A DNA stretch of 8,045 nt from a virus. The notes under the pieces are model-generated. The model was not told the origin of the DNA and ran no database searches. It was given only the letters and a program-made list of their open reading frames with translations. Each line of letters begins with the position of its first letter. The stretch's first letter is position 1. The translations under genes were made by a program, and so were the position numbers. The stretch lies in the IMG/VR virus record IMGVR_UViG_3300044548_000117; one strand, given 5' to 3'. Of this stretch, positions 2,737-8,045 are shown piece by piece.

Positions 2737-2827
2737 ACTTCATGACCTACGAAATGTACTGGCTCGCGGTAAACGTGTTAGCGGCGTTGCTGATCTTGTT
2801 CGGTCGGTTATAGCGTCAGGTTGAATT

Positions 2828-2852
2828 AAAGGCCCCTGACGGGGCTTTTTTT
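2828..2852 (+). terminator. Rho-independent terminator between pVIII and pIII
   Basis: The sequence is AAAGGCCCC-TGAC-GGGGCTTTTTTT: a GC stem (2832-2836 / 2841-2845), a 4-nt loop and a run of 7 T. Ff phages also terminate after gene VIII. Confidence 0.8.
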
Positions 2853-2869
2853 ATTTTGAGAGGCTAGTT

Positions 2870-4147
2870 ATGCGGGCTATATTGATTTTGCTTTTATTTT
2901 TAATGCCCCCATTGTCCGCTTACTCGTCTGAGTACATTTGGACTACTACCAGCTGGTCTGGGAATACTTACTCCGGCCCTAGTCCCTTTTCTGCTTGCGC
3001 TCAGATTCCTTATGATAATCAGTTTGTCTTTGATCACTTGGATAGGATTTCTGACACACAGTTCCGATGTGTCGCTCTGCGGGTGTCTGATGGCGCAATT
3101 CACTCCGGCATGTCTGCGATTAGATCTGGTGATTCATGCCCTTCCGGTACTGTATTTAATGGCCTTACTGGTGTTTGTGATCCTCCAACTGATGGAGAGT
3201 GCCTGGCTAAAAGTTCATATACGAAAACCATTCAGTATTCATTTGCTGATGGTTCTGCTGTTTTTGGTCTCGGTGCAGATATTAAGGATGGTTGCATTTA
3301 TGAGCCCGGAGAGCCGAAGAACTGTACGGACACACAATGCGAAGTTGAAATGAAGCCGGTTGGTAATAACGTCATGTCGGATAACTCCGGCAACCCTGAC
3401 CAAGATCTTCAGGATTATCTGGACGAACTGGCAAAGCAGTTCAAGTGCGAGCATGTGGCCAATGGAACTGTTGGTTGTTCGGCTGCTGAGACTACGCCGC
3501 CGGATATCGATCCTGACGACAAGTGCCCGGATGGCTATTCCTGGTCAGGCACTGCTTGCTTCCCCACGAATGGCGGTGGGAACGAGAACCCCGATAACCC
3601 GACGCCTGGTGGTGATGGCGGCTCTTCTGGCGGCGGCAGTACCGGCGGCAGTGGCGGGGATGGCGGCAGTACCGGCGGCGATGGTAGCGGCGATGGCTCC
3701 AGCGGTGGCGGCGGAGGTGGTAACGACGGTGACGATGGTGACGACAAGGAACCTGGTGTTGAGGGTACGGCTTGTGACAAGGCGTTTAAGTGCACTGGCG
3801 ATGCCGTTAACTGCGCGATTGCTGAGCGCCAGAAGAATGCCTATTGCGAGAACAAGGAACTCCAGGATGCACAAAAAGGTTTCGACAAGATTGGCGAGGA
3901 AATAGGCCAGGAGAAGTACACGATGCTCGATGGCGGCGATGTAGATATTGGTTCGCTGTTTGGTGAAGGCACTCGGTTCTTGCCTTCGGCATGCCCGGCG
4001 ATTTCAACAACAACACTGCATGTAGGGCCTCTCCAGTTTAACTGGCAGCCGGTCTGTCAGTACGCCGAGCTGGTTGGAAAGTTCCTTGTCGCCTGGGCAT
4101 CCCTGTTCTTTGCAACGTATGTTGGTCGCGCCTTTGGAGGTGATTGA
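2870..4147 (+). CDS. gIII: Minor coat / adsorption protein (pIII-like)
   Basis: GAGAGG lies 6 nt upstream. The protein has a signal peptide (MRAILILLLFLMPPLSAYS), Cys-rich N-terminal domains and a long Gly/Ser/Asp linker (GGDGGSSGGGSTGGSGGDGGSTGGDGSGDGSSGGGGGGNDGDDGDD). A C-terminal hydrophobic anchor (FLVAWASLFFATYVG) completes the pIII architecture, and the gene sits after pVIII as gIII does. Confidence 0.85.
   Translation: MRAILILLLFLMPPLSAYSSEYIWTTTSWSGNTYSGPSPFSACAQIPYDNQFVFDHLDRISDTQFRCVALRVSDGAIHSGMSAIRSGDSCPSGTVFNGLTGVCDPPTDGECLAKSSYTKTIQYSFADGSAVFGLGADIKDGCIYEPGEPKNCTDTQCEVEMKPVGNNVMSDNSGNPDQDLQDYLDELAKQFKCEHVANGTVGCSAAETTPPDIDPDDKCPDGYSWSGTACFPTNGGGNENPDNPTPGGDGGSSGGGSTGGSGGDGGSTGGDGSGDGSSGGGGGGNDGDDGDDKEPGVEGTACDKAFKCTGDAVNCAIAERQKNAYCENKELQDAQKGFDKIGEEIGQEKYTMLDGGDVDIGSLFGEGTRFLPSACPAISTTTLHVGPLQFNWQPVCQYAELVGKFLVAWASLFFATYVGRAFGGD
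3632..3691 (+). repeat. Tandem 30-bp repeat inside the Gly-rich linker of pIII
   Basis: GGCGGCAGTACCGGCGGC occurs at 3632-3649 and again at 3662-3679. The two units encode GGSTGGSGGD and GGSTGGDGSG. Confidence 0.7.
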
Positions 4148-4149
4148 TT

Positions 4150-4455
4150 ATGTGGTTCTACTATGCGTTTTCGTTTTTGAGCTTCGTGCTTATTCCGCTG
4201 GTGAACATGGTGCTTCGCGCCTTGGGCATTGGCGTAATGAGCTATATCGGAATCAATCTGGCAATTAATGCCGCCAAGGATCACTTGATTGCAGCCCTTG
4301 GCGGAATGCCCATCCAAGTTCAGCAAATTCTTGGCCTGGCCAATGTTGATGTTGCGGTGAACATTGTTCTTTCCGCAGTGACCACCCGGTTCATCTTGAA
4401 CGGCGTTAACAAGCTCAGTGGTCGCAAGAAAAAGTATGGCGTCTTGGAGGCTTAA
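4150..4455 (+). CDS. gVI: Minor coat / membrane protein (pVI-like)
   Basis: GGAGGTG (4135-4141) lies 8 nt before ATG 4150; the ORF track starts at TTG 4144. The 101-aa product is hydrophobic and multi-TM, and sits between pIII and pI as in Ff. Confidence 0.75.
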   Translation: MWFYYAFSFLSFVLIPLVNMVLRALGIGVMSYIGINLAINAAKDHLIAALGGMPIQVQQILGLANVDVAVNIVLSAVTTRFILNGVNKLSGRKKKYGVLEA

Positions 4456-4458
4456 CGT

Positions 4459-5709
4459 ATGGGCTCGCCACTGAACTTGGTTACTGGTCTTCCTGGCAAT
4501 GGCAAGACGCTTAACACGATCAAGGAAGTAGATGCGCAGGCGGTTAAAGAAGGCCGGCTTGTGTACTTCCACAATATTCGCGGCCTTAAGCCCGAGCTGC
4601 TTAAGGCGGAATGGTACGAGTTCGAGGACCCGCATAAGTGGTTCGAACTGCCCGAGAACAGTCTGATCGTGGTGGATGAGGCCCAGGGCTTTTTCCCGCC
4701 CAGGGACATTCGCAAGCCGGTTCCCGAGTACTGCTCCAAGATGGAAACCGTGCGCCATGAGGGACGCGAGCTGTGGCTAATCACCCAGCACCCCAGCTTC
4801 ATTGACGTGCACGCTCGCCGGTTGACCAACCGGCACATCCATTTCAAGCGCATCTTCAAGTCGTCGCGGATTTTGCGGCACGAGTGGGAAGGGGTGTCCG
4901 ATGTCGACAAGGCCAGCTCGTTCAAGGCGGCCATGACGACGCCTATCAAGCTCGATAAGAAGTTCTTCGACGTCTACCAGTCCACGGCCCAGGGGGCTTC
5001 GCATTTCTTCAAATTCAAGGCGCCTCTGGCCCTCTATGCGCTGCTTCTCTGCCTGGGTGTGGTGGCCGTCTTCGGGTATCGGTTCTATCAGCGTTATCAG
5101 GAGAAGGTGGGCGCCCACGATGCGCCTACTGAGCAGCAGGCGCTGCCCTCGGGCGCTGCTGTGCTGGGATCGGTGGTGGATGCCGTGGCGCCGGAATCGG
5201 TGAAGGGCAAGGGCAAGCAGACGCTGCAGGAGTACCTGGCCGACCGGACGCCACGGATTGCGTCCGTGCCGTCGTCGGCGCCGATCTACGATGAGCTGAC
5301 CAAGCCCGTCAGCTTCCCGCGCACATACTGTGTCTCGACGACCAATGAAACGCTTCTGGAGCGCAACAGCGTGCGTAGCCGCATGAAGGTCGGTTGGCAC
5401 CATGGGAAGAAGACTGGGTGCGGGTGTTACACCCAGCAAGGCAGCCAGGTGCAGACGACTTTCGAGTACTGCATGAACGCGGTGGAGAATCGGTTCTTCG
5501 ATCCAACGCTGCCGGATCATGGCAGCCAGCAGGTGGCCTCGTTGCCACAGCCGCCAACCGCTGGCCTCGTCGCAAGCGGAAGCGACGTAGGAGCACCGCG
5601 CGACGTGTCCAGCGGCGCGCCGCTGGCTTCAGCGACCGATGGCGGTTTCGGCGGCACGCGCCTTACGATCGTGCCTGACAGCGAATACCCGTCGAGGCCG
5701 TGGAGGTGA
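4459..5709 (+). CDS. gI: Assembly ATPase pI / Zot-family protein
   Basis: GGAGG lies 8 nt upstream. The protein has a Walker A motif GLPGNGKT at aa 10-17, a Walker B-like LIVVDEAQ, one central TM segment (APLALYALLLCLGVVAVFGYRFY) and a Cys-containing C-terminal domain (GCGCYTQQG). This is the typical Zot/pI layout. Confidence 0.92.
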   Translation: MGSPLNLVTGLPGNGKTLNTIKEVDAQAVKEGRLVYFHNIRGLKPELLKAEWYEFEDPHKWFELPENSLIVVDEAQGFFPPRDIRKPVPEYCSKMETVRHEGRELWLITQHPSFIDVHARRLTNRHIHFKRIFKSSRILRHEWEGVSDVDKASSFKAAMTTPIKLDKKFFDVYQSTAQGASHFFKFKAPLALYALLLCLGVVAVFGYRFYQRYQEKVGAHDAPTEQQALPSGAAVLGSVVDAVAPESVKGKGKQTLQEYLADRTPRIASVPSSAPIYDELTKPVSFPRTYCVSTTNETLLERNSVRSRMKVGWHHGKKTGCGCYTQQGSQVQTTFEYCMNAVENRFFDPTLPDHGSQQVASLPQPPTAGLVASGSDVGAPRDVSSGAPLASATDGGFGGTRLTIVPDSEYPSRPWR

Positions 5710-5825
5710 TGATGGATGTGTGGATGGTGTTGACCGTGCTTCTGGTCGTTGTGGTGGGCACGGTGTTCGCCGGCTTGGCCGGCTTCGGCATGATGCAGGC
5801 GTGGGCGAGTCGTGGCGATGACTGA
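5709..5825 (+). CDS. Hydrophobic micro-ORF, 38 aa (MMDVWMVLTVLLVVVVGTVFAGLAGFGMMQAWASRGDD)
   Basis: This ORF is below the ORF-track size cutoff. Its ATG overlaps the pI stop (TGATGATG), with GGAGG at 5702-5706 (5 nt before the second ATG at 5712). It contains one clear TM-like segment. I translated it by hand. Confidence 0.4.
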   Translation: MMDVWMVLTVLLVVVVGTVFAGLAGFGMMQAWASRGDD

Positions 5826-5913
5826 CCTTACGTGGTGGCAGGCGGCTTTGGTTGTTGTTCCTGGAGTAATCCTGTTTGTGGTCGGCTTGGCTCGGGAGAT
5901 CCGTCACTGGTGA
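5818..5913 (+). CDS. Hydrophobic micro-ORF, 31 aa (MTDLTWWQAALVVVPGVILFVVGLAREIRHW)
   Basis: The start overlaps the end of the preceding micro-ORF (GATGACTGA). It has a single TM-like segment with flanking aromatic and basic residues and no strong SD of its own. I translated it by hand. Confidence 0.35.
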   Translation: MTDLTWWQAALVVVPGVILFVVGLAREIRHW

Positions 5914-5920
5914 ACCCTAG

Positions 5921-5948
5921 GCTTCGCATAATGTATATGGCGTTACGT
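5921..5948 (+). other. dif-like XerC/XerD recombination site 1 (candidate attP half)
   Basis: The site reads GCTTCGCATAA-TGTATA-TGGCGTTACGT. Against E. coli dif (GGTGCGCATAA-TGTATA-TTATGTTAAAT) the XerC arm matches 9/11, the central region 6/6 and the XerD arm 6/11. Confidence 0.7.
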
Positions 5949-5986
5949 TGAGCGGCGTGCGGAACATGGCCACGCCTCCGCGCGTC

Positions 5987-6014
5987 GCGTAACGTAATGC
6001 CCATTATGCGAACG
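5987..6014 (-). other. dif-like site 2, inverted relative to site 1
   Basis: The reverse complement reads CGTTCGCATAA-TGGGCA-TTACGTTACGC. Against dif the XerC arm matches 9/11, the central region 3/6 and the XerD arm 7/11. Site 2 shares TTCGCATAAT and CGTTACG exactly with site 1. Confidence 0.6.
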
Positions 6015-6242
6015 CCCGTGCCTCTCGAAATTCCGCCTCATCTGGTCGACCTGGCCACCTTGTATTCCCCATCCCGCGATCCTCTCGATGCCGTTTGTTA
6101 CGTCCTGCAGGCCTACCCGGAGCTGGTGGGCGATCTGCGCAAGCTGCGCCGCCGAGTCGCCCAACTGGACGAAGAGGGCGCGCTGCTGGACGAGCGCCTG
6201 GCGAAGCTCCAGGCAGCTTGCCGGGCGATACTCGATCTGTAG
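5997..6242 (+). CDS. Small DNA-binding-like protein: possible ribbon-helix-helix N-terminus plus C-terminal coiled coil (81 aa)
   Basis: VPLEIPPHLVDLA resembles an RHH beta-strand/helix start. The C-terminal LRKLRRRVAQLDEEGALLDERLAKLQAACRAILDL is heptad-like. There is no convincing SD. The stop TAG (6240-6242) abuts the first GCTAGC palindrome. The architecture parallels ORF 6454-6747. Confidence 0.45.
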   Translation: MPIMRTPVPLEIPPHLVDLATLYSPSRDPLDAVCYVLQAYPELVGDLRKLRRRVAQLDEEGALLDERLAKLQAACRAILDL

Positions 6243-6440
6243 TGCTAGCGTTTTTCGTTCTGCAGTTGCTGCACCAGGTCGAGATTTGCTAGCACCTGGC
6301 GGATCTGCCTGAAGGCGCCCTGCTAGCATTTCGCGTCCTCGATCGGCGCCGGCGCCGATGAAATTGCTAGCAATCGTCTCGATGGGAGTGCTAGCATTTT
6401 TGCACCTGGTGGATCTCGTCCAGGATCAAATTTGCTAGCA
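6242..6440. repeat. Array of six perfect GCTAGC palindromes (core of TGCTAGCA) in the 211-bp gap between the two RHH-like ORFs
   Basis: The cores lie at 6244-6249, 6288-6293, 6322-6327, 6366-6371, 6390-6395 and 6434-6439, spaced 44, 34, 44, 24 and 44 bp apart. Site 4 is a 12-bp perfect palindrome, ATTGCTAGCAAT (6363-6374). Site 6 abuts the SD of the downstream ORF. Confidence 0.9.
6342..6359. repeat. 18-bp perfect palindrome ATCGGCGCCGGCGCCGAT
   Basis: The sequence equals its own reverse complement. It lies between GCTAGC sites 3 and 4. Confidence 0.9.
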
Positions 6441-6453
6441 GGGAGAAAGTGGA

Positions 6454-6747
6454 ATGCTGCTGACCATTCGCGATGTGCCCGAAGACCTGGTGCGCCAGGC
6501 AAAGATTGCGACCGGCAAAGGTACTGGGAGCCAGGCGTTTATCGCCGGCATTGAGCTGATGCTGTGGCAGCGTGATCGCATCGACGAGATGCAGGAAGAG
6601 ATTCGCTCGCTGCGCGAGACCGTTGGTGTCTACCAGGGCGTGCTTGCCGATGCTCATTCGGCCGCTGTTCAGCTCGCCGAGATCGCCGGGCAGAAGGACC
6701 TTTTCCAGTCTGAGAACCCGCTGCGCCCCGGGTATCGTCGCCGCTAG
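6454..6747 (+). CDS. Ribbon-helix-helix-like DNA-binding protein with a C-terminal coiled coil (97 aa)
   Basis: GGGAG lies 8 nt upstream. MLLTIRDVPEDLVRQAKIATGKGTGSQAFIAGIELML fits the RHH pattern of beta-strand, helix A, G-x-S/T turn and helix B. It is followed by the heptad-like RIDEMQEEIRSLRETVGVYQGVL. The stop TAG (6745-6747) lies inside GCTAGC site 7. Confidence 0.7.
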   Translation: MLLTIRDVPEDLVRQAKIATGKGTGSQAFIAGIELMLWQRDRIDEMQEEIRSLRETVGVYQGVLADAHSAAVQLAEIAGQKDLFQSENPLRPGYRRR

Positions 6748-6838
6748 CAGTTTTCGCGCACCAGCTGCTGCACCGCGGCTGATTTTGCTAGCACTTTTGC
6801 CTGCAGGTTTCGTCCTGGATCCGACTGACTGCTAGCAA
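6741..6838. repeat. Array of three further GCTAGC palindromes downstream of the second RHH-like ORF
   Basis: The cores lie at 6743-6748, 6787-6792 and 6831-6836, spaced 44 and 44 bp apart. The first unit is homologous to the unit after ORF 5997-6242: both carry TTTTCG..TGCTGCACC..GATTTGCTAGCAC. Confidence 0.9.
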
Positions 6839-6841
6839 CTC

Positions 6842-7087
6842 GGAAGCCCCTTCGCGGGGCTCCGTCGTTCCCGGCGCTCCGAGCACACCTCGCGCCTGAT
6901 CACCCCAATTGCGCGTACAGCGGCCTTCCAGGGGCCTCTGTACGTGCGCGCACGTTGTGCTCGCAGACTTCCGAGGAATGTTCAGCCGTCTAGCCCAGCT
7001 GGTGGAGAGCGCGAAGCATTGGCCCTGCGGGCCAACGGGTAGCCGGAAGGCGCAGGGCGGAGCCCTGGCGGAAGGAACGAATGTTCC
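6842..7087 (+). other. Hairpin-dense GC-rich non-coding segment; candidate packaging signal and/or minus-strand origin, or a structured RNA
   Basis: I found five stem-loops by hand: 6842-6863; 6911-6947 (10-bp outer stem plus inner GGCC/GGCC); 7019-7035 (TTGGCCC-TGC-GGGCCAA); 7053-7067 (CAGGGC-GGA-GCCCTG, flanked by direct CGGAAGG repeats); and 7074-7087 (GGAAC-GAAT-GTTCC). There is no credible ORF. The functional assignment is by analogy with the Ff intergenic region. Confidence 0.4.
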
Positions 7088-7135
7088 TGGAGGGTAAGGC
7101 CGGCTTGCAGCGGGGCGGGGGTAGGCCGGAGGCCG

Positions 7136-7157
7136 CAGGGGTTCACCCCTGGTTTTT
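7136..7157 (+). terminator. Rho-independent terminator (plus strand)
   Basis: The sequence is CAGGGG-TTCA-CCCCTG followed by GTTTTT. On the minus strand no T tract follows the hairpin. Confidence 0.7.
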
Positions 7158-7415
7158 AGATGCCTCCGGCGCTGCCTTGGGTATGACTCCACGGCAGTAG
7201 ACCAGGTAGTTCTTGTCCGTCTTCCTAGTCGCTTTTTCTGCGGCCGCCATGGCTTTTCCTGCGGTGGTGCACGCCTCTTTCGTGGGGTAGGGGGTGTGCA
7301 CCGTAATTACAGTGGTAGGCGTCGGGTTGCTCTGGAGCAGGATTGTCAGGATGTATTCGAGGGTCACTGCCGCTCCATGGCTTTTTGGGGCTGCGCGGAG
7401 TGTCCGATAGCGCAC
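7143..7415 (-). CDS. Hypothetical small protein (90 aa from GTG 7415; 74 aa from GTG 7367)
   Basis: This is the only sizeable ORF in the interval. The internal GTG at 7367 has GGAG 5 nt upstream. I recognise no motif, and the C-terminus reads through the plus-strand terminator hairpin, so the call is weak. Confidence 0.3.
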   Translation of the reverse strand: MRYRTLRAAPKSHGAAVTLEYILTILLQSNPTPTTVITVHTPYPTKEACTTAGKAMAAAEKATRKTDKNYLVYCRGVIPKAAPEASKNQG

Positions 7416-7430
7416 TCCCGGCGGCAGCCG

Positions 7431-7473
7431 GGTCCACCATCTCTAATGGTGGACTCTTGTCTCATGGTGAGAA
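7431..7473 (+). promoter_or_regulatory. Plus-strand (rolling-circle) origin with an Ff-like nick-site hairpin
   Basis: GTCCACCAT-CTCTA-ATGGTGGAC forms a 9-bp stem (7432-7440 / 7446-7454). TCTCTAATGGTGGACTCTTGT matches the f1 origin TCTTTAATAGTGGACTCTTGT at 19/21, and GTGGACTCTTGT (7449-7460) is identical. A second inverted repeat, TCTCA-TGG-TGAGA (7460-7472), sits where the Ff pII-binding inverted repeat lies. By analogy the nick falls between T7444 and A7445. Confidence 0.8.
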
Positions 7474-7491
7474 TTTCCGATCATTTTTTGA

Positions 7492-7926
7492 TCAGCGCAG
7501 CGCTTCCTGCTCGTAGCCGTACAGAACGCCTTTTAGGGCGATTCGTGCTTGGTTTCTGATCTCGGCGGGCAGCGCATCAAACCTCTTGAGTATGGGTCTC
7601 AAGTCCTCGGATACGGTCATTTCTTCGCTGTCCAGCAGCAGCTCGTCGGTGGTTACGCCGAGCACCTTTGCCATGGCGACGACCTTGTCAGCCGATGGCA
7701 TTGCCGTGCCAGCTTCGTAGGTGCTGTAGGTTGATTTGCCGATGCCAGCAGGGCCCCAGACTTCAGGCATCGTGAGGCCTCGGCCCTTTCTGATCCGCTT
7801 TAGGTTCTCGCCAAGCGTCATAGCTCTCTCATGCGCGGTCTTCATGGTGGCGAGATCGTAGGTACTGTTCACGCATACAGCTCCAGCATTCTGGCATTTG
7901 ATTGCTTGCATGTTGTAATGCTCCAT
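7492..7926 (-). CDS. XRE/Cro-CI family helix-turn-helix transcriptional repressor (phage immunity-type regulator)
   Basis: LGENLKRIRKGRGLTMPEVWGPAGIGKSTYSTYEAGTAMPSADKVVAMAKVLGVTTDELL is a typical XRE HTH domain. The gene is transcribed divergently from pII. The start is uncertain: ATG at 7926, 7911, 7845 or 7821, where 7821 gives MTLGENLKR, a typical HTH N-terminus. The ORF runs into the terminal repeat. Confidence 0.85.
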   Translation of the reverse strand: MEHYNMQAIKCQNAGAVCVNSTYDLATMKTAHERAMTLGENLKRIRKGRGLTMPEVWGPAGIGKSTYSTYEAGTAMPSADKVVAMAKVLGVTTDELLLDSEEMTVSEDLRPILKRFDALPAEIRNQARIALKGVLYGYEQEALR

Positions 7927-8045
7927 TGCTAGATTACCGGCATTCGCATTCCTGATTTCAGGTATTGACAGGGATTTCGCCGGTGCTTGATCGAATCCAC
8001 ATGTTCATCCGCTTTCGCCGGGAGCACGTCCAGATGATTGGCAAG
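7919..8045. repeat. Terminal direct repeat, copy 2 (identical to 1..127)
   Basis: See copy 1. It contains the repressor start region and the 5' end of pII. Confidence 0.97.

Follow-up and report, generated by a model that had tools for sequence, protein, structure and literature searches.

Why are nine copies of one perfect palindrome crowded into a few hundred base pairs of an inovirus genome, and what reads them? The question is raised by IMG/VR record IMGVR_UViG_3300044548_000117, a viral sequence of 8,045 nucleotides (this whole stretch is referred to here as the window), in which GCTAGC occurs nine times around a small open reading frame (ORF), ORF2. Comparison with related loci suggests that the nine palindromes are probably the cognate sites of the 97-residue ORF2 protein, and that the gene and its sites together make up a self-contained, horizontally mobile cassette.

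Nine GCTAGC palindromes bracket ORF2 with fixed spacing

A preliminary description of the window had reported nine GCTAGC copies confined to this region, and this holds: the copies lie at 6244, 6288, 6322, 6366, 6390, 6434, 6743, 6787 and 6831, and the rest of the window has none. Its estimate of about two copies by chance agrees with dinucleotide-preserving shuffles, which averaged 2.19 copies per window and did not exceed 7, with 0 of 200 reaching 9; within the 593-bp span, 0.16 copies are expected against the 9 seen (P(>=9) ~2e-13). The extension of most copies beyond the hexamer was also confirmed: the full 8-mer TGCTAGCA is present at seven of the nine sites, with TGCTAGCG at site 1 and CGCTAGCA at site 7 in its place, and the 12-bp palindrome mentioned in that description, ATTGCTAGCAAT, was located at site 4. 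The centre-to-centre spacings are exactly as given there, 44/34/44/24/44 bp upstream and 44/44 bp downstream, with the two blocks separated by 309 bp and bracketing ORF2. The sites form 52-bp inverted-repeat units, in which TGCTAGCA followed by a T tract faces an A tract followed by TGCTAGCA, 44 bp centre to centre.

The short spacings differ from 44 by exact multiples of 10 bp, which had been taken as a sign of helical register. The spacings are indeed exact in the window, but the 34-bp gap is specific to it. The extra upstream unit is present in the window and in its closest six-site relative (L020), and the joint is 34 bp in the former and 25 bp in the latter; therefore 34 bp is not a conserved quantum. 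In the GGTACC branch of relatives, the 24-bp spacing is replaced by 33 bp. At 10.5 bp per turn, 44 bp corresponds to 4.19 turns, and the angular offsets are 69, 103 and 86 degrees for 44, 24 and 34 bp, respectively. A common helical face for all sites is loosely supported, and as an approximation only.

Several other readings of the array DNA were considered and rejected. Mini-ORFs inside the units (L-A-12 residues-C-stop) are an arithmetic outcome of 44 being 2 mod 3 combined with a CTAG core, and the long minus-strand ORFs across the array look non-protein-like. A restriction-site decoy (palindromes of the NheI/KpnI/EcoRV type) is countered by asymmetric GATAGC and GATTGC variants and by the rigid spacing. 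At E <= 1, Rfam gave no match anywhere in the window, and the terminator-like matches in 5850-8045 are not conserved in relatives.

The gene and its sites recur as a module

Relatives of ORF2 with 36-98% identity were found at 34 IMG/VR loci, at three genome loci and in the phages Pf 36-2 and vB_Pae_U10; they occur in Pseudomonas and Stutzerimonas, mostly on inovirus contigs of ~7 kb. At most of the IMG/VR and genome loci, the gene is preceded by four sites (44/24/44), and a downstream set of three (44/44) starts with a site that overlaps the stop codon. In a wider set of ~70 non-redundant relatives, four upstream sites (44/24/44 or 44/33/44) are followed by the gene and then by 0-3 downstream sites. 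Pseudomonas phage Pf 36-2 has sites at 124, 168, 192 and 236, then the gene, then sites at 543, 587 and 631, and the P4-like satellite vB_Pae_U10 has sites at 3938 and 3981, then the gene, then sites at 4290, 4334 and 4378. Related phages retain both the sites and their spacing, as the proposal of an ordered array had implied: across 31 unique modules, the 44-bp spacing was counted in 111 cases and the 24-bp spacing in 28. Mean pairwise identity among 16 GCTAGC-type modules is 0.997 for the hexamers and 0.709 for the inter-site DNA, and 0.838, 0.905 and 0.576 at ORF2 codon positions 1, 2 and 3.

The recurrence of sites at 44-bp intervals, which the preliminary description had singled out for a database check, was also evident in a search with TGCTAGCA-N36-TGCTAGCA. 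The pattern occurs in 49 viral contigs, 31 of which encode an ORF2 homologue. Eight more (44-51% G+C) follow the same design, with four to six sites spaced at exactly 44 bp directly after the gene of an 89-residue protein (MSEKVSTITLRLTAEE..LTGKRTASEAI). This distant-branch protein is related to the ORF2 family by hhalign (E 7e-4) and has a weak RHH_1 match (E 0.037), and its nearest catalogued relatives are on Bacteroides plasmids. A profile search of 1.84 billion representatives returned 170 ORF2-family clusters at 50% identity, mostly proteins of ~85 residues. A second branch with MLVKI or MLIKF N-termini adds 42 further viral loci, mostly ~7-kb inoviruses, and the members that were read through show the attP hairpin, four sites and the gene. 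The carriers of the ORF2 module are inoviruses, P4-like satellites and plasmids, all of them small extrachromosomal or integrative replicons.

Some relatives depart from the usual form. C-terminally extended homologues of 124-126 residues (L035 611-671, L036 1749) read through the former stop-codon site as ...DLLA..., and their downstream sites are lost or lie inside the coding sequence. On two Pseudomonas plasmids, the LexA-box-like sequences CTGTATATAGATACAG and CTGTATAAATATACAG stand just 5' of the cassette (L091 ~3775-3790; L092 ~3757-3772), and in one plasmid relative a good promoter (TAGACA-17-TATAAT) was recognized by eye downstream of the site pair. The regulatory logic may differ between hosts, and in some relatives the ORF2-type gene may be read only from upstream.

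Tandem repeats of TGCTAGCA with a 10-11 bp period were also encountered (L074 4778-5051, L066 11962-12224, L087 5425-5528), in unrelated viral contigs: inside a replication-organiser-like ORF, inside a repeat-protein ORF and in a eukaryotic virus contig encoding an IAP. The 11-bp arrays were considered as support for an 11-bp helical rule and set aside; no ORF2 relative is adjacent, and they were judged unrelated.

The palindrome co-varies with the protein N-terminus

Over ~70 non-redundant modules, the type of ORF2 N-terminus and the palindrome are matched without exception, with TG-N-TA-N'-CA as the general site and palindrome positions 3 and 6 varying together with the N-terminal residue type. 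Proteins that begin with xT(I/L)R are paired with TGCTAGCA, TGATAGCA or TGATTGCA, those that begin with L(I/V)K(I/F/L) with TGGTACCA, and those that begin with HLIVR with TGATATCA. The MLVKI/MLIKF branch of the second type has 44/33/44 spacing, and two MHLIVRD proteins of the third type are encoded in modules with 44/24/44, gene, 44. The locus L038, whose protein is 36% identical to ORF2, keeps the 44/24/44 geometry while all seven of its sites are GGTACC (TGGTACCA type); its protein is with certainty a homologue from residue 9 on (hhalign 99.5%, E 2e-22), and the first eight residues and the loop are different. Homologues at 46% identity have GATAGC/GCTATC sites, and a plasmid homologue at 32% identity has four TGATTGCA sites, arranged as an upstream and a downstream pair, with a spacing of 44 bp in each. 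These data are indirect but consistent with a base specificity that is set by the N-terminal strand and with symmetric sites that are bound by dimers.

Three proteins had been put forward as possible binders, the products of 5997-6242, 6454-6747 (ORF2) and 7492-7926, and the covariation favours ORF2. The other two are not favoured: the 5997-6242 gene is absent from Pf 36-2, which keeps the array, and the repressor of Pf 36-2 is unrelated to that encoded at 7492-7926. Of the original proposal, the ordered array of protein-binding sites is sustained by the conserved sites, the rigid spacing and the covariation with the ORF2 N-terminus; its iteron variant is not.

A second sequence element accompanies the palindromes. 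Every 44-bp unit, in all branches and whatever the outer palindrome, contains an off-centre box, CCWGGTCGA (at best the palindrome GCACCWGGTGC), placed a few bases from one of the unit's two sites and with parts more than 90% conserved. In the window, the box is found at 6770-6782 in addition to the two copies in Table 1, and further examples are present in L096, L115 and L118. This box is a sign either of an additional conserved partner or of a further contact made by the ORF2-type protein. Its reading by eye as a sigma-54 element was discarded, as the GG-to-GC spacing is one base short.

ORF2 encodes a probable ribbon-helix-helix-like protein

ORF2 belongs to phrog_8031 (E 1.2e-33), a PHROG without assigned function. 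No significant match was obtained in Pfam, NCBIfam or PADLOC, and the protein is therefore not a catalogued defence protein. An AlphaFold2 model of the monomer, built from a 28-sequence alignment (mean predicted local distance difference test score, pLDDT, 82), consists of an extended N-terminus (residues 1-9), a helix (10-20), the loop GKGT and one long helix (25-84); the model being monomeric, the strand of a ribbon-helix-helix (RHH) fold, which forms only in a dimer, is not expected in it. The predicted topology is compatible with an RHH head whose second helix runs on into a coiled coil. Among 43 diverse members of the family, four match Pfam FitA-like_RHH (best E 9.4e-5) and two match PSK_trans_fac. 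Based on these data, an RHH-like nature of ORF2 is probable. Sequence searches of the PDB with ORF2 and two profiles gave weak coiled-coil-type matches only, which we judged to be noise, and no match to TraM or Aux2. The Pf 36-2 homologue was labelled '7NUV-like' by its depositors; 7NUV is cited in the paper on the auxiliary proteins of the pLS20 relaxosome, which solved the tetramerisation domain of Aux2 (PMC8829557), itself an RHH protein analogous to TraM.

A model for the action of ORF2

The covariation and the predicted secondary structure together suggest how the protein could work. ORF2 would dimerise through its N-terminal RHH-like module, so that the paired strands read one TG-N-TA-N'-CA palindrome. 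The helix of 60 residues may act as a coiled coil that ties dimers together, resulting in cooperative filling of site pairs 44 bp apart, and the inward-facing T and A tracts probably assist DNA bending. In the window, six upstream and three downstream sites would become coated. The upstream site nearest to the gene touches the ribosome-binding site, and the stop codon is part of the nearest downstream site. Coating of the gene's ribosome-binding region and 3' end would therefore throttle expression of ORF2, by negative autoregulation of the operator or the roadblock kind. The coated DNA might also seal late-gene transcription off from the non-coding region, with its presumed origin and packaging signals. 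With the XerCD attP hairpin on one side and the presumed origin region on the other, the nucleoprotein complex might have an architectural role there, although this is speculative.

Several results weigh against this account. The support for binding of the sites by ORF2 is wholly comparative. ORF2 itself scores poorly as an RHH protein: its match to Pfam FitA-like_RHH has E 0.17 and 12.3 bits where the cut-off is 27, comparison with a hand-typed RHH alignment by hhalign yielded a probability of 0.7%, and a Foldseek search of the model against the PDB found nothing below E 2.5, with FitA at rank 4 (E 6.3). A sigma-70 promoter scan of 5850-8045 found none in or near the array, leaving an 'operator' in the strict sense unproven. 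Downstream sites are absent in some branches (L092, L115, L123), and bracketing of the gene is thus not essential. The model leaves the inner box unexplained, and a second conserved factor may be involved.

Alternative explanations

A wider interpretation, possible but doubtful, takes the cassette as an autonomous and exchangeable protein with its own private address, whose code can be re-programmed (three N-terminal types, three palindromes) and whose coated segment has a non-transcriptional job. Candidate jobs would be anchoring or segregation of the replicative form independently of an ATPase, or control at the XerCD attP hairpin and the rolling-circle origin, for example by choosing between integration, replication from tandem prophages and packaging. 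The inner box would then be the docking point of a second conserved partner.

An unlikely but serious alternative is that ORF2 is an accessory architectural factor, analogous to TraM/TraY or Aux1/Aux2 at oriT, which shapes the DNA by the rolling-circle origin or the XerCD attP and so aids nicking, termination, packaging or integration. The position of the arrays fits this idea. In inoviruses, the array always lies between the attP hairpin (or ORF1) and the non-coding region; in the satellites it comes directly after the primase gene; the distant branch has a Lin1244-type replication-organiser gene a few hundred base pairs upstream; and in three plasmids the array is 1-3 kb from rep. The depositors' label on the Pf 36-2 homologue, with its tie through 7NUV to the TraM analogue Aux2 (PMC8829557), points the same way. 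However, the sites do not co-vary with Rep, and around one plasmid copy no replication gene lies within 4 kb. In a 7-kb genome, proximity to everything is to be expected.

It is distinctly unlikely that the array is a centromere-like partition site with ORF2 as an RHH centromere-binding protein resembling ParG, omega or pB171 ParB, which would ensure segregation of the replicative form, satellite or plasmid with or without a host ATPase. Repeat arrays that flank the gene of a small RHH-like coiled-coil protein would suit such a role, as would the restriction of all carriers to small replicons and the homologues on Pseudomonas and Bacteroides plasmids, which lie beside toxin-antitoxin, resolvase and replication genes. 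A repeated-site array near an operon is also present (nine sites here, 4+3 in most relatives), though with a geometry unlike that of known centromeres and with only two to six sites per array. No ParA, ParM or TubZ-type gene was found in the 7.9-kb genome, in which the long ORFs are the G2P-family Rep, a 425-residue ORF in the minor-coat position, Zot and the helix-turn-helix (HTH) repressor, and the only P-loop protein found is Zot; nor is such an NTPase annotated beside the plasmid or satellite copies. Furthermore, most inovirus copies are found integrated at dif and, in that state, do not need partition.

Folding of the 44-bp inverted pairs into hairpins in single-stranded DNA (ssDNA), as a packaging signal or complementary-strand origin comparable with the Ff intergenic hairpins, is highly improbable. 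Four of the five units do fold better than shuffles (z -2.4 to -4.4) and the neighbouring attP is itself a strong ssDNA hairpin, but unit 7-8 is no better than shuffles (z +0.5) and the stems consist almost solely of the palindromes themselves. The same arrays also occur in double-stranded P4-like satellites and plasmids, and one protein-covarying palindrome per element is not required by hairpin pairing alone. A purely single-strand structural role is unlikely on this evidence.

The preliminary description had also offered iterons or operators. Repeated sites in the non-coding or regulatory part of a small replicon would be natural as Rep-binding iterons or as operators of the immunity repressor 7492-7926, yet the same sites occur with barely alignable Reps, a different kind of primase and unrelated repressors. 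The Reps of the window and Pf 36-2 align at a best BLASTP E of 0.054 whereas their ORF2 proteins are 86% identical and their sites the same, and the P4-like satellites replicate with a toprim/DUF927 primase. The divergent region between repressor and Rep has no exact GCTAGC; only single one-mismatch TGCTAGCA-like 8-mers are present there, at 7743 and 7903, both inside the repressor gene. Since Rep, repressor and primase differ and the sites do not, both Rep iterons and immunity operators are excluded for practical purposes and keep the barest trace of probability.

Virtually no room is left for chance or a generic host repeat, for although GCTAGC is merely a simple palindrome, the clustering is too improbable (see above) and the hexamer is rare outside the modules, at 0.12 per kb in related phage genomes; a 47-kb record of a P. 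aeruginosa P2-like phage plus satellite contains three stray copies. GCTAGC is therefore not a generic repeat.

Genomic context

The window represents an inovirus genome that is circular and complete, with a terminal redundancy of 127 nt (1-127 = 7919-8045) and a unique length of 7918 bp, and the features of the locus are listed in Table 1. No integrase gene was found in the window. The dif-like pair consists of TTCGCATAATGTATATGGCGTTACG and an imperfect inverted copy, and its ssDNA hairpin has a dG of -37.6 kcal/mol (z -6.0); a forked hairpin of this kind is the hallmark of a CTX-type XerCD attP. The dif-like motif marks the exact start of the Pf 36-2 record, a linear prophage deposit. In inovirus relatives, the array follows the attP hairpin within a few bases, or follows ORF1, and extends up to the non-coding region. 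ORF1 homologues precede the array in many relatives, and one is present without the ORF2 cassette in Phage blackswan219-1; ORF1 is a frequent but dispensable neighbour of the module.

Table 1. Features of the ORF2 locus in the window
Feature	Position	Strand	Description
Inverted dif-like site pair (CTX-type XerCD attP)	5920-6016	+	Forked ssDNA hairpin
ORF1, 81 aa, phrog_13909	5997-6242	+	Start inside attP hairpin; stop followed at once by first site
Site 1, TGCTAGCG	6243-6250	.	Left end of extra 44-bp unit; one base past stop codon of ORF 5997-6242
Site 2, TGCTAGCA	6287-6294	.	Right end of extra unit; box GCACCAGGTCGA (6271-6282) just inside
Site 3	6321-6328	.	Family site a, left end of upstream unit U1
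Site 4	6365-6372	.	Family site b; inside 12-bp palindrome ATTGCTAGCAAT (6363-6374)
Site 5	6389-6396	.	Family site c, left end of U2; then T tract and box GCACCTGGTGG (6402-6412)
Site 6	6433-6440	.	Family site d; abuts Shine-Dalgarno-like GGGAGA (6441-6446), 13 nt 5' of ORF2 ATG
ORF2, 97 aa	6454-6747	+	RHH-like N-terminal module MLLTIRDVPEDLVRQAKIATGKGTGSQAFI, long predicted helix 25-84, basic tail; proposed site binder
Site 7, CGCTAGCA	6742-6749	.	Family site e; its TAG (6745-6747) is the ORF2 stop codon
Site 8	6786-6793	.	Family site f, common to downstream units D1 and D2
Site 9	6830-6837	.	Family site g, last; then G+C-rich hairpin GCCCCTTCGCGGGGC (6846-6860), non-coding 6840-7490

Downstream of the array, 6840-7490 has no convincing gene and is the presumed location of the origin and packaging signals; next come the genes of the 144-residue HTH repressor (7492-7926, minus strand) and of the G2P-family Rep. 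Within 5700-7950, nucleotide similarity to catalogued phages is confined to 7386-7495 (84-92%; Pseudomonas phage NEU2023 and blackswan219-1), which contains the hairpin CCACCATCTCTAATGGTGG just past the 3' end of the repressor gene and may be a conserved terminator or origin element. Elsewhere in the genome, the block 2751-4460 has a G+C content of 51% against ~61% in its flanks and holds the 425-residue ORF (2870-4147, minor coat/adsorption position) and a small ORF, which suggests a mosaic, horizontally replaced host-recognition module. Two cassette copies ~7 kb apart, as in tandem prophages, were observed on several viral contigs (L017/L034, L102/L103, L110/L112 and L111/L113), the arrangement that would be expected of CTX-like phages that are unable to excise and are produced from tandem arrays.

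Comparison with known systems

The sites of TraM lie near its own gene, and TraM autoregulates. TraM of F-like plasmids, which acts at sbmA/B/C in oriT, and Aux2 of pLS20 are small proteins with an N-terminal RHH domain and a helical C-terminal oligomerisation domain, and they bind several short symmetric motifs cooperatively over a long stretch, with allele-specific recognition residing in the RHH domain (PMC3159463; PMC8829557). The ORF2 protein would resemble them in its probable RHH-like head, in a predicted long helix that may serve oligomerisation, and in multiple symmetric sites that may be filled cooperatively. However, TraM sites are close together and staggered whereas ORF2 sites come in pairs 44 bp apart, and searches with ORF2 by sequence and by fold gave no significant match. 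The partners of TraM are a relaxase and the coupling protein TraD; neither turned up in the inovirus domain scans, which gave only the G2P Rep, Zot and the HTH repressor, and no relaxase or coupling-protein gene is annotated in the satellites.

RHH centromere-binding proteins, such as ParG with parH of TP228, omega of pSM19035, ParB with parC1/parC2 of pB171 and ParR with parC of R1, are likewise small and act on repeat arrays that double as operators. The pB171 arrays flank their operon upstream and downstream, in the same manner as the sites around ORF2. Partition of type Ib/II needs an adjacent ATPase gene (ParA/ParF/delta/ParM), which was not found in the 7.9-kb genome, and partition centromeres have 10-35 close-packed repeats (periods of 4-11 bp) in direct or mixed orientation, in contrast to the palindromes in 44-bp pairs at the ORF2 locus. 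The single-protein partition system of pSK1 is closer in lacking an ATPase partner: Par combines a DNA-binding head with a coiled coil, and its repeats lie beside its own gene. It differs in having a winged-helix head, a length of ~245 residues and direct repeats upstream only, whereas ORF2 has 97 residues, a probable RHH-like head and palindromes on both sides.

The metbox of MetJ, AGACGTCT, is an 8-bp palindrome that is bound by one RHH dimer, with specificity from the N-terminal beta-strand and cooperative binding to repeated sites. One dimer per short palindrome and specificity of the N-terminal strand, as in MetJ, Arc, Mnt and CopG, are what we propose for ORF2. Nevertheless, metboxes abut and the Arc and CopG operators are single promoter sites of 13-21 bp, unlike the spaced pairs of ORF2 sites, and MetJ, Arc/Mnt and CopG have neither a coiled coil of 60 residues nor sites downstream of the gene, whereas the ORF2 module has both (the coiled coil as a prediction). 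Taken together, the ORF2 cassette shares the logic of TraM-sbm, the RHH centromere binders and MetJ but fails the defining context of each, because it has no relaxase or coupling protein, no partition ATPase and no contiguous boxes.

Searches of the literature for TGCTAGCA returned only cloning primers, and those combining RHH, filamentous phage and Pseudomonas returned nothing on the module; the paper on Pf 36-2 does not mention it (PMC10675462). The cassette would represent an RHH regulator with repeated sites in a new form, which combines a palindrome that is private and re-programmable, site pairs held rigidly at 44 bp, and portability, and of which no description was found in the searchable literature.

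Significance

Integrase-less filamentous prophages of Pseudomonas, which apparently use the host XerCD, were recognised only recently (PMC10675462). The ORF2 cassette is among their most conserved non-structural features and stands between the attachment site and the presumed origin region. The analysis defines the uncharacterised family PHROG 8031 as common to filamentous phages, P4-like satellites and plasmids of Pseudomonas, together with a distant branch. It also offers a protein-DNA recognition code that is directly testable, in that a swap of ~8 residues predicts whether GCTAGC, GATATC or GGTACC would be read. If it is true that the ORF2 protein controls phage production or maintenance, the cassette would provide a handle on Pf biology in P. 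aeruginosa infections.

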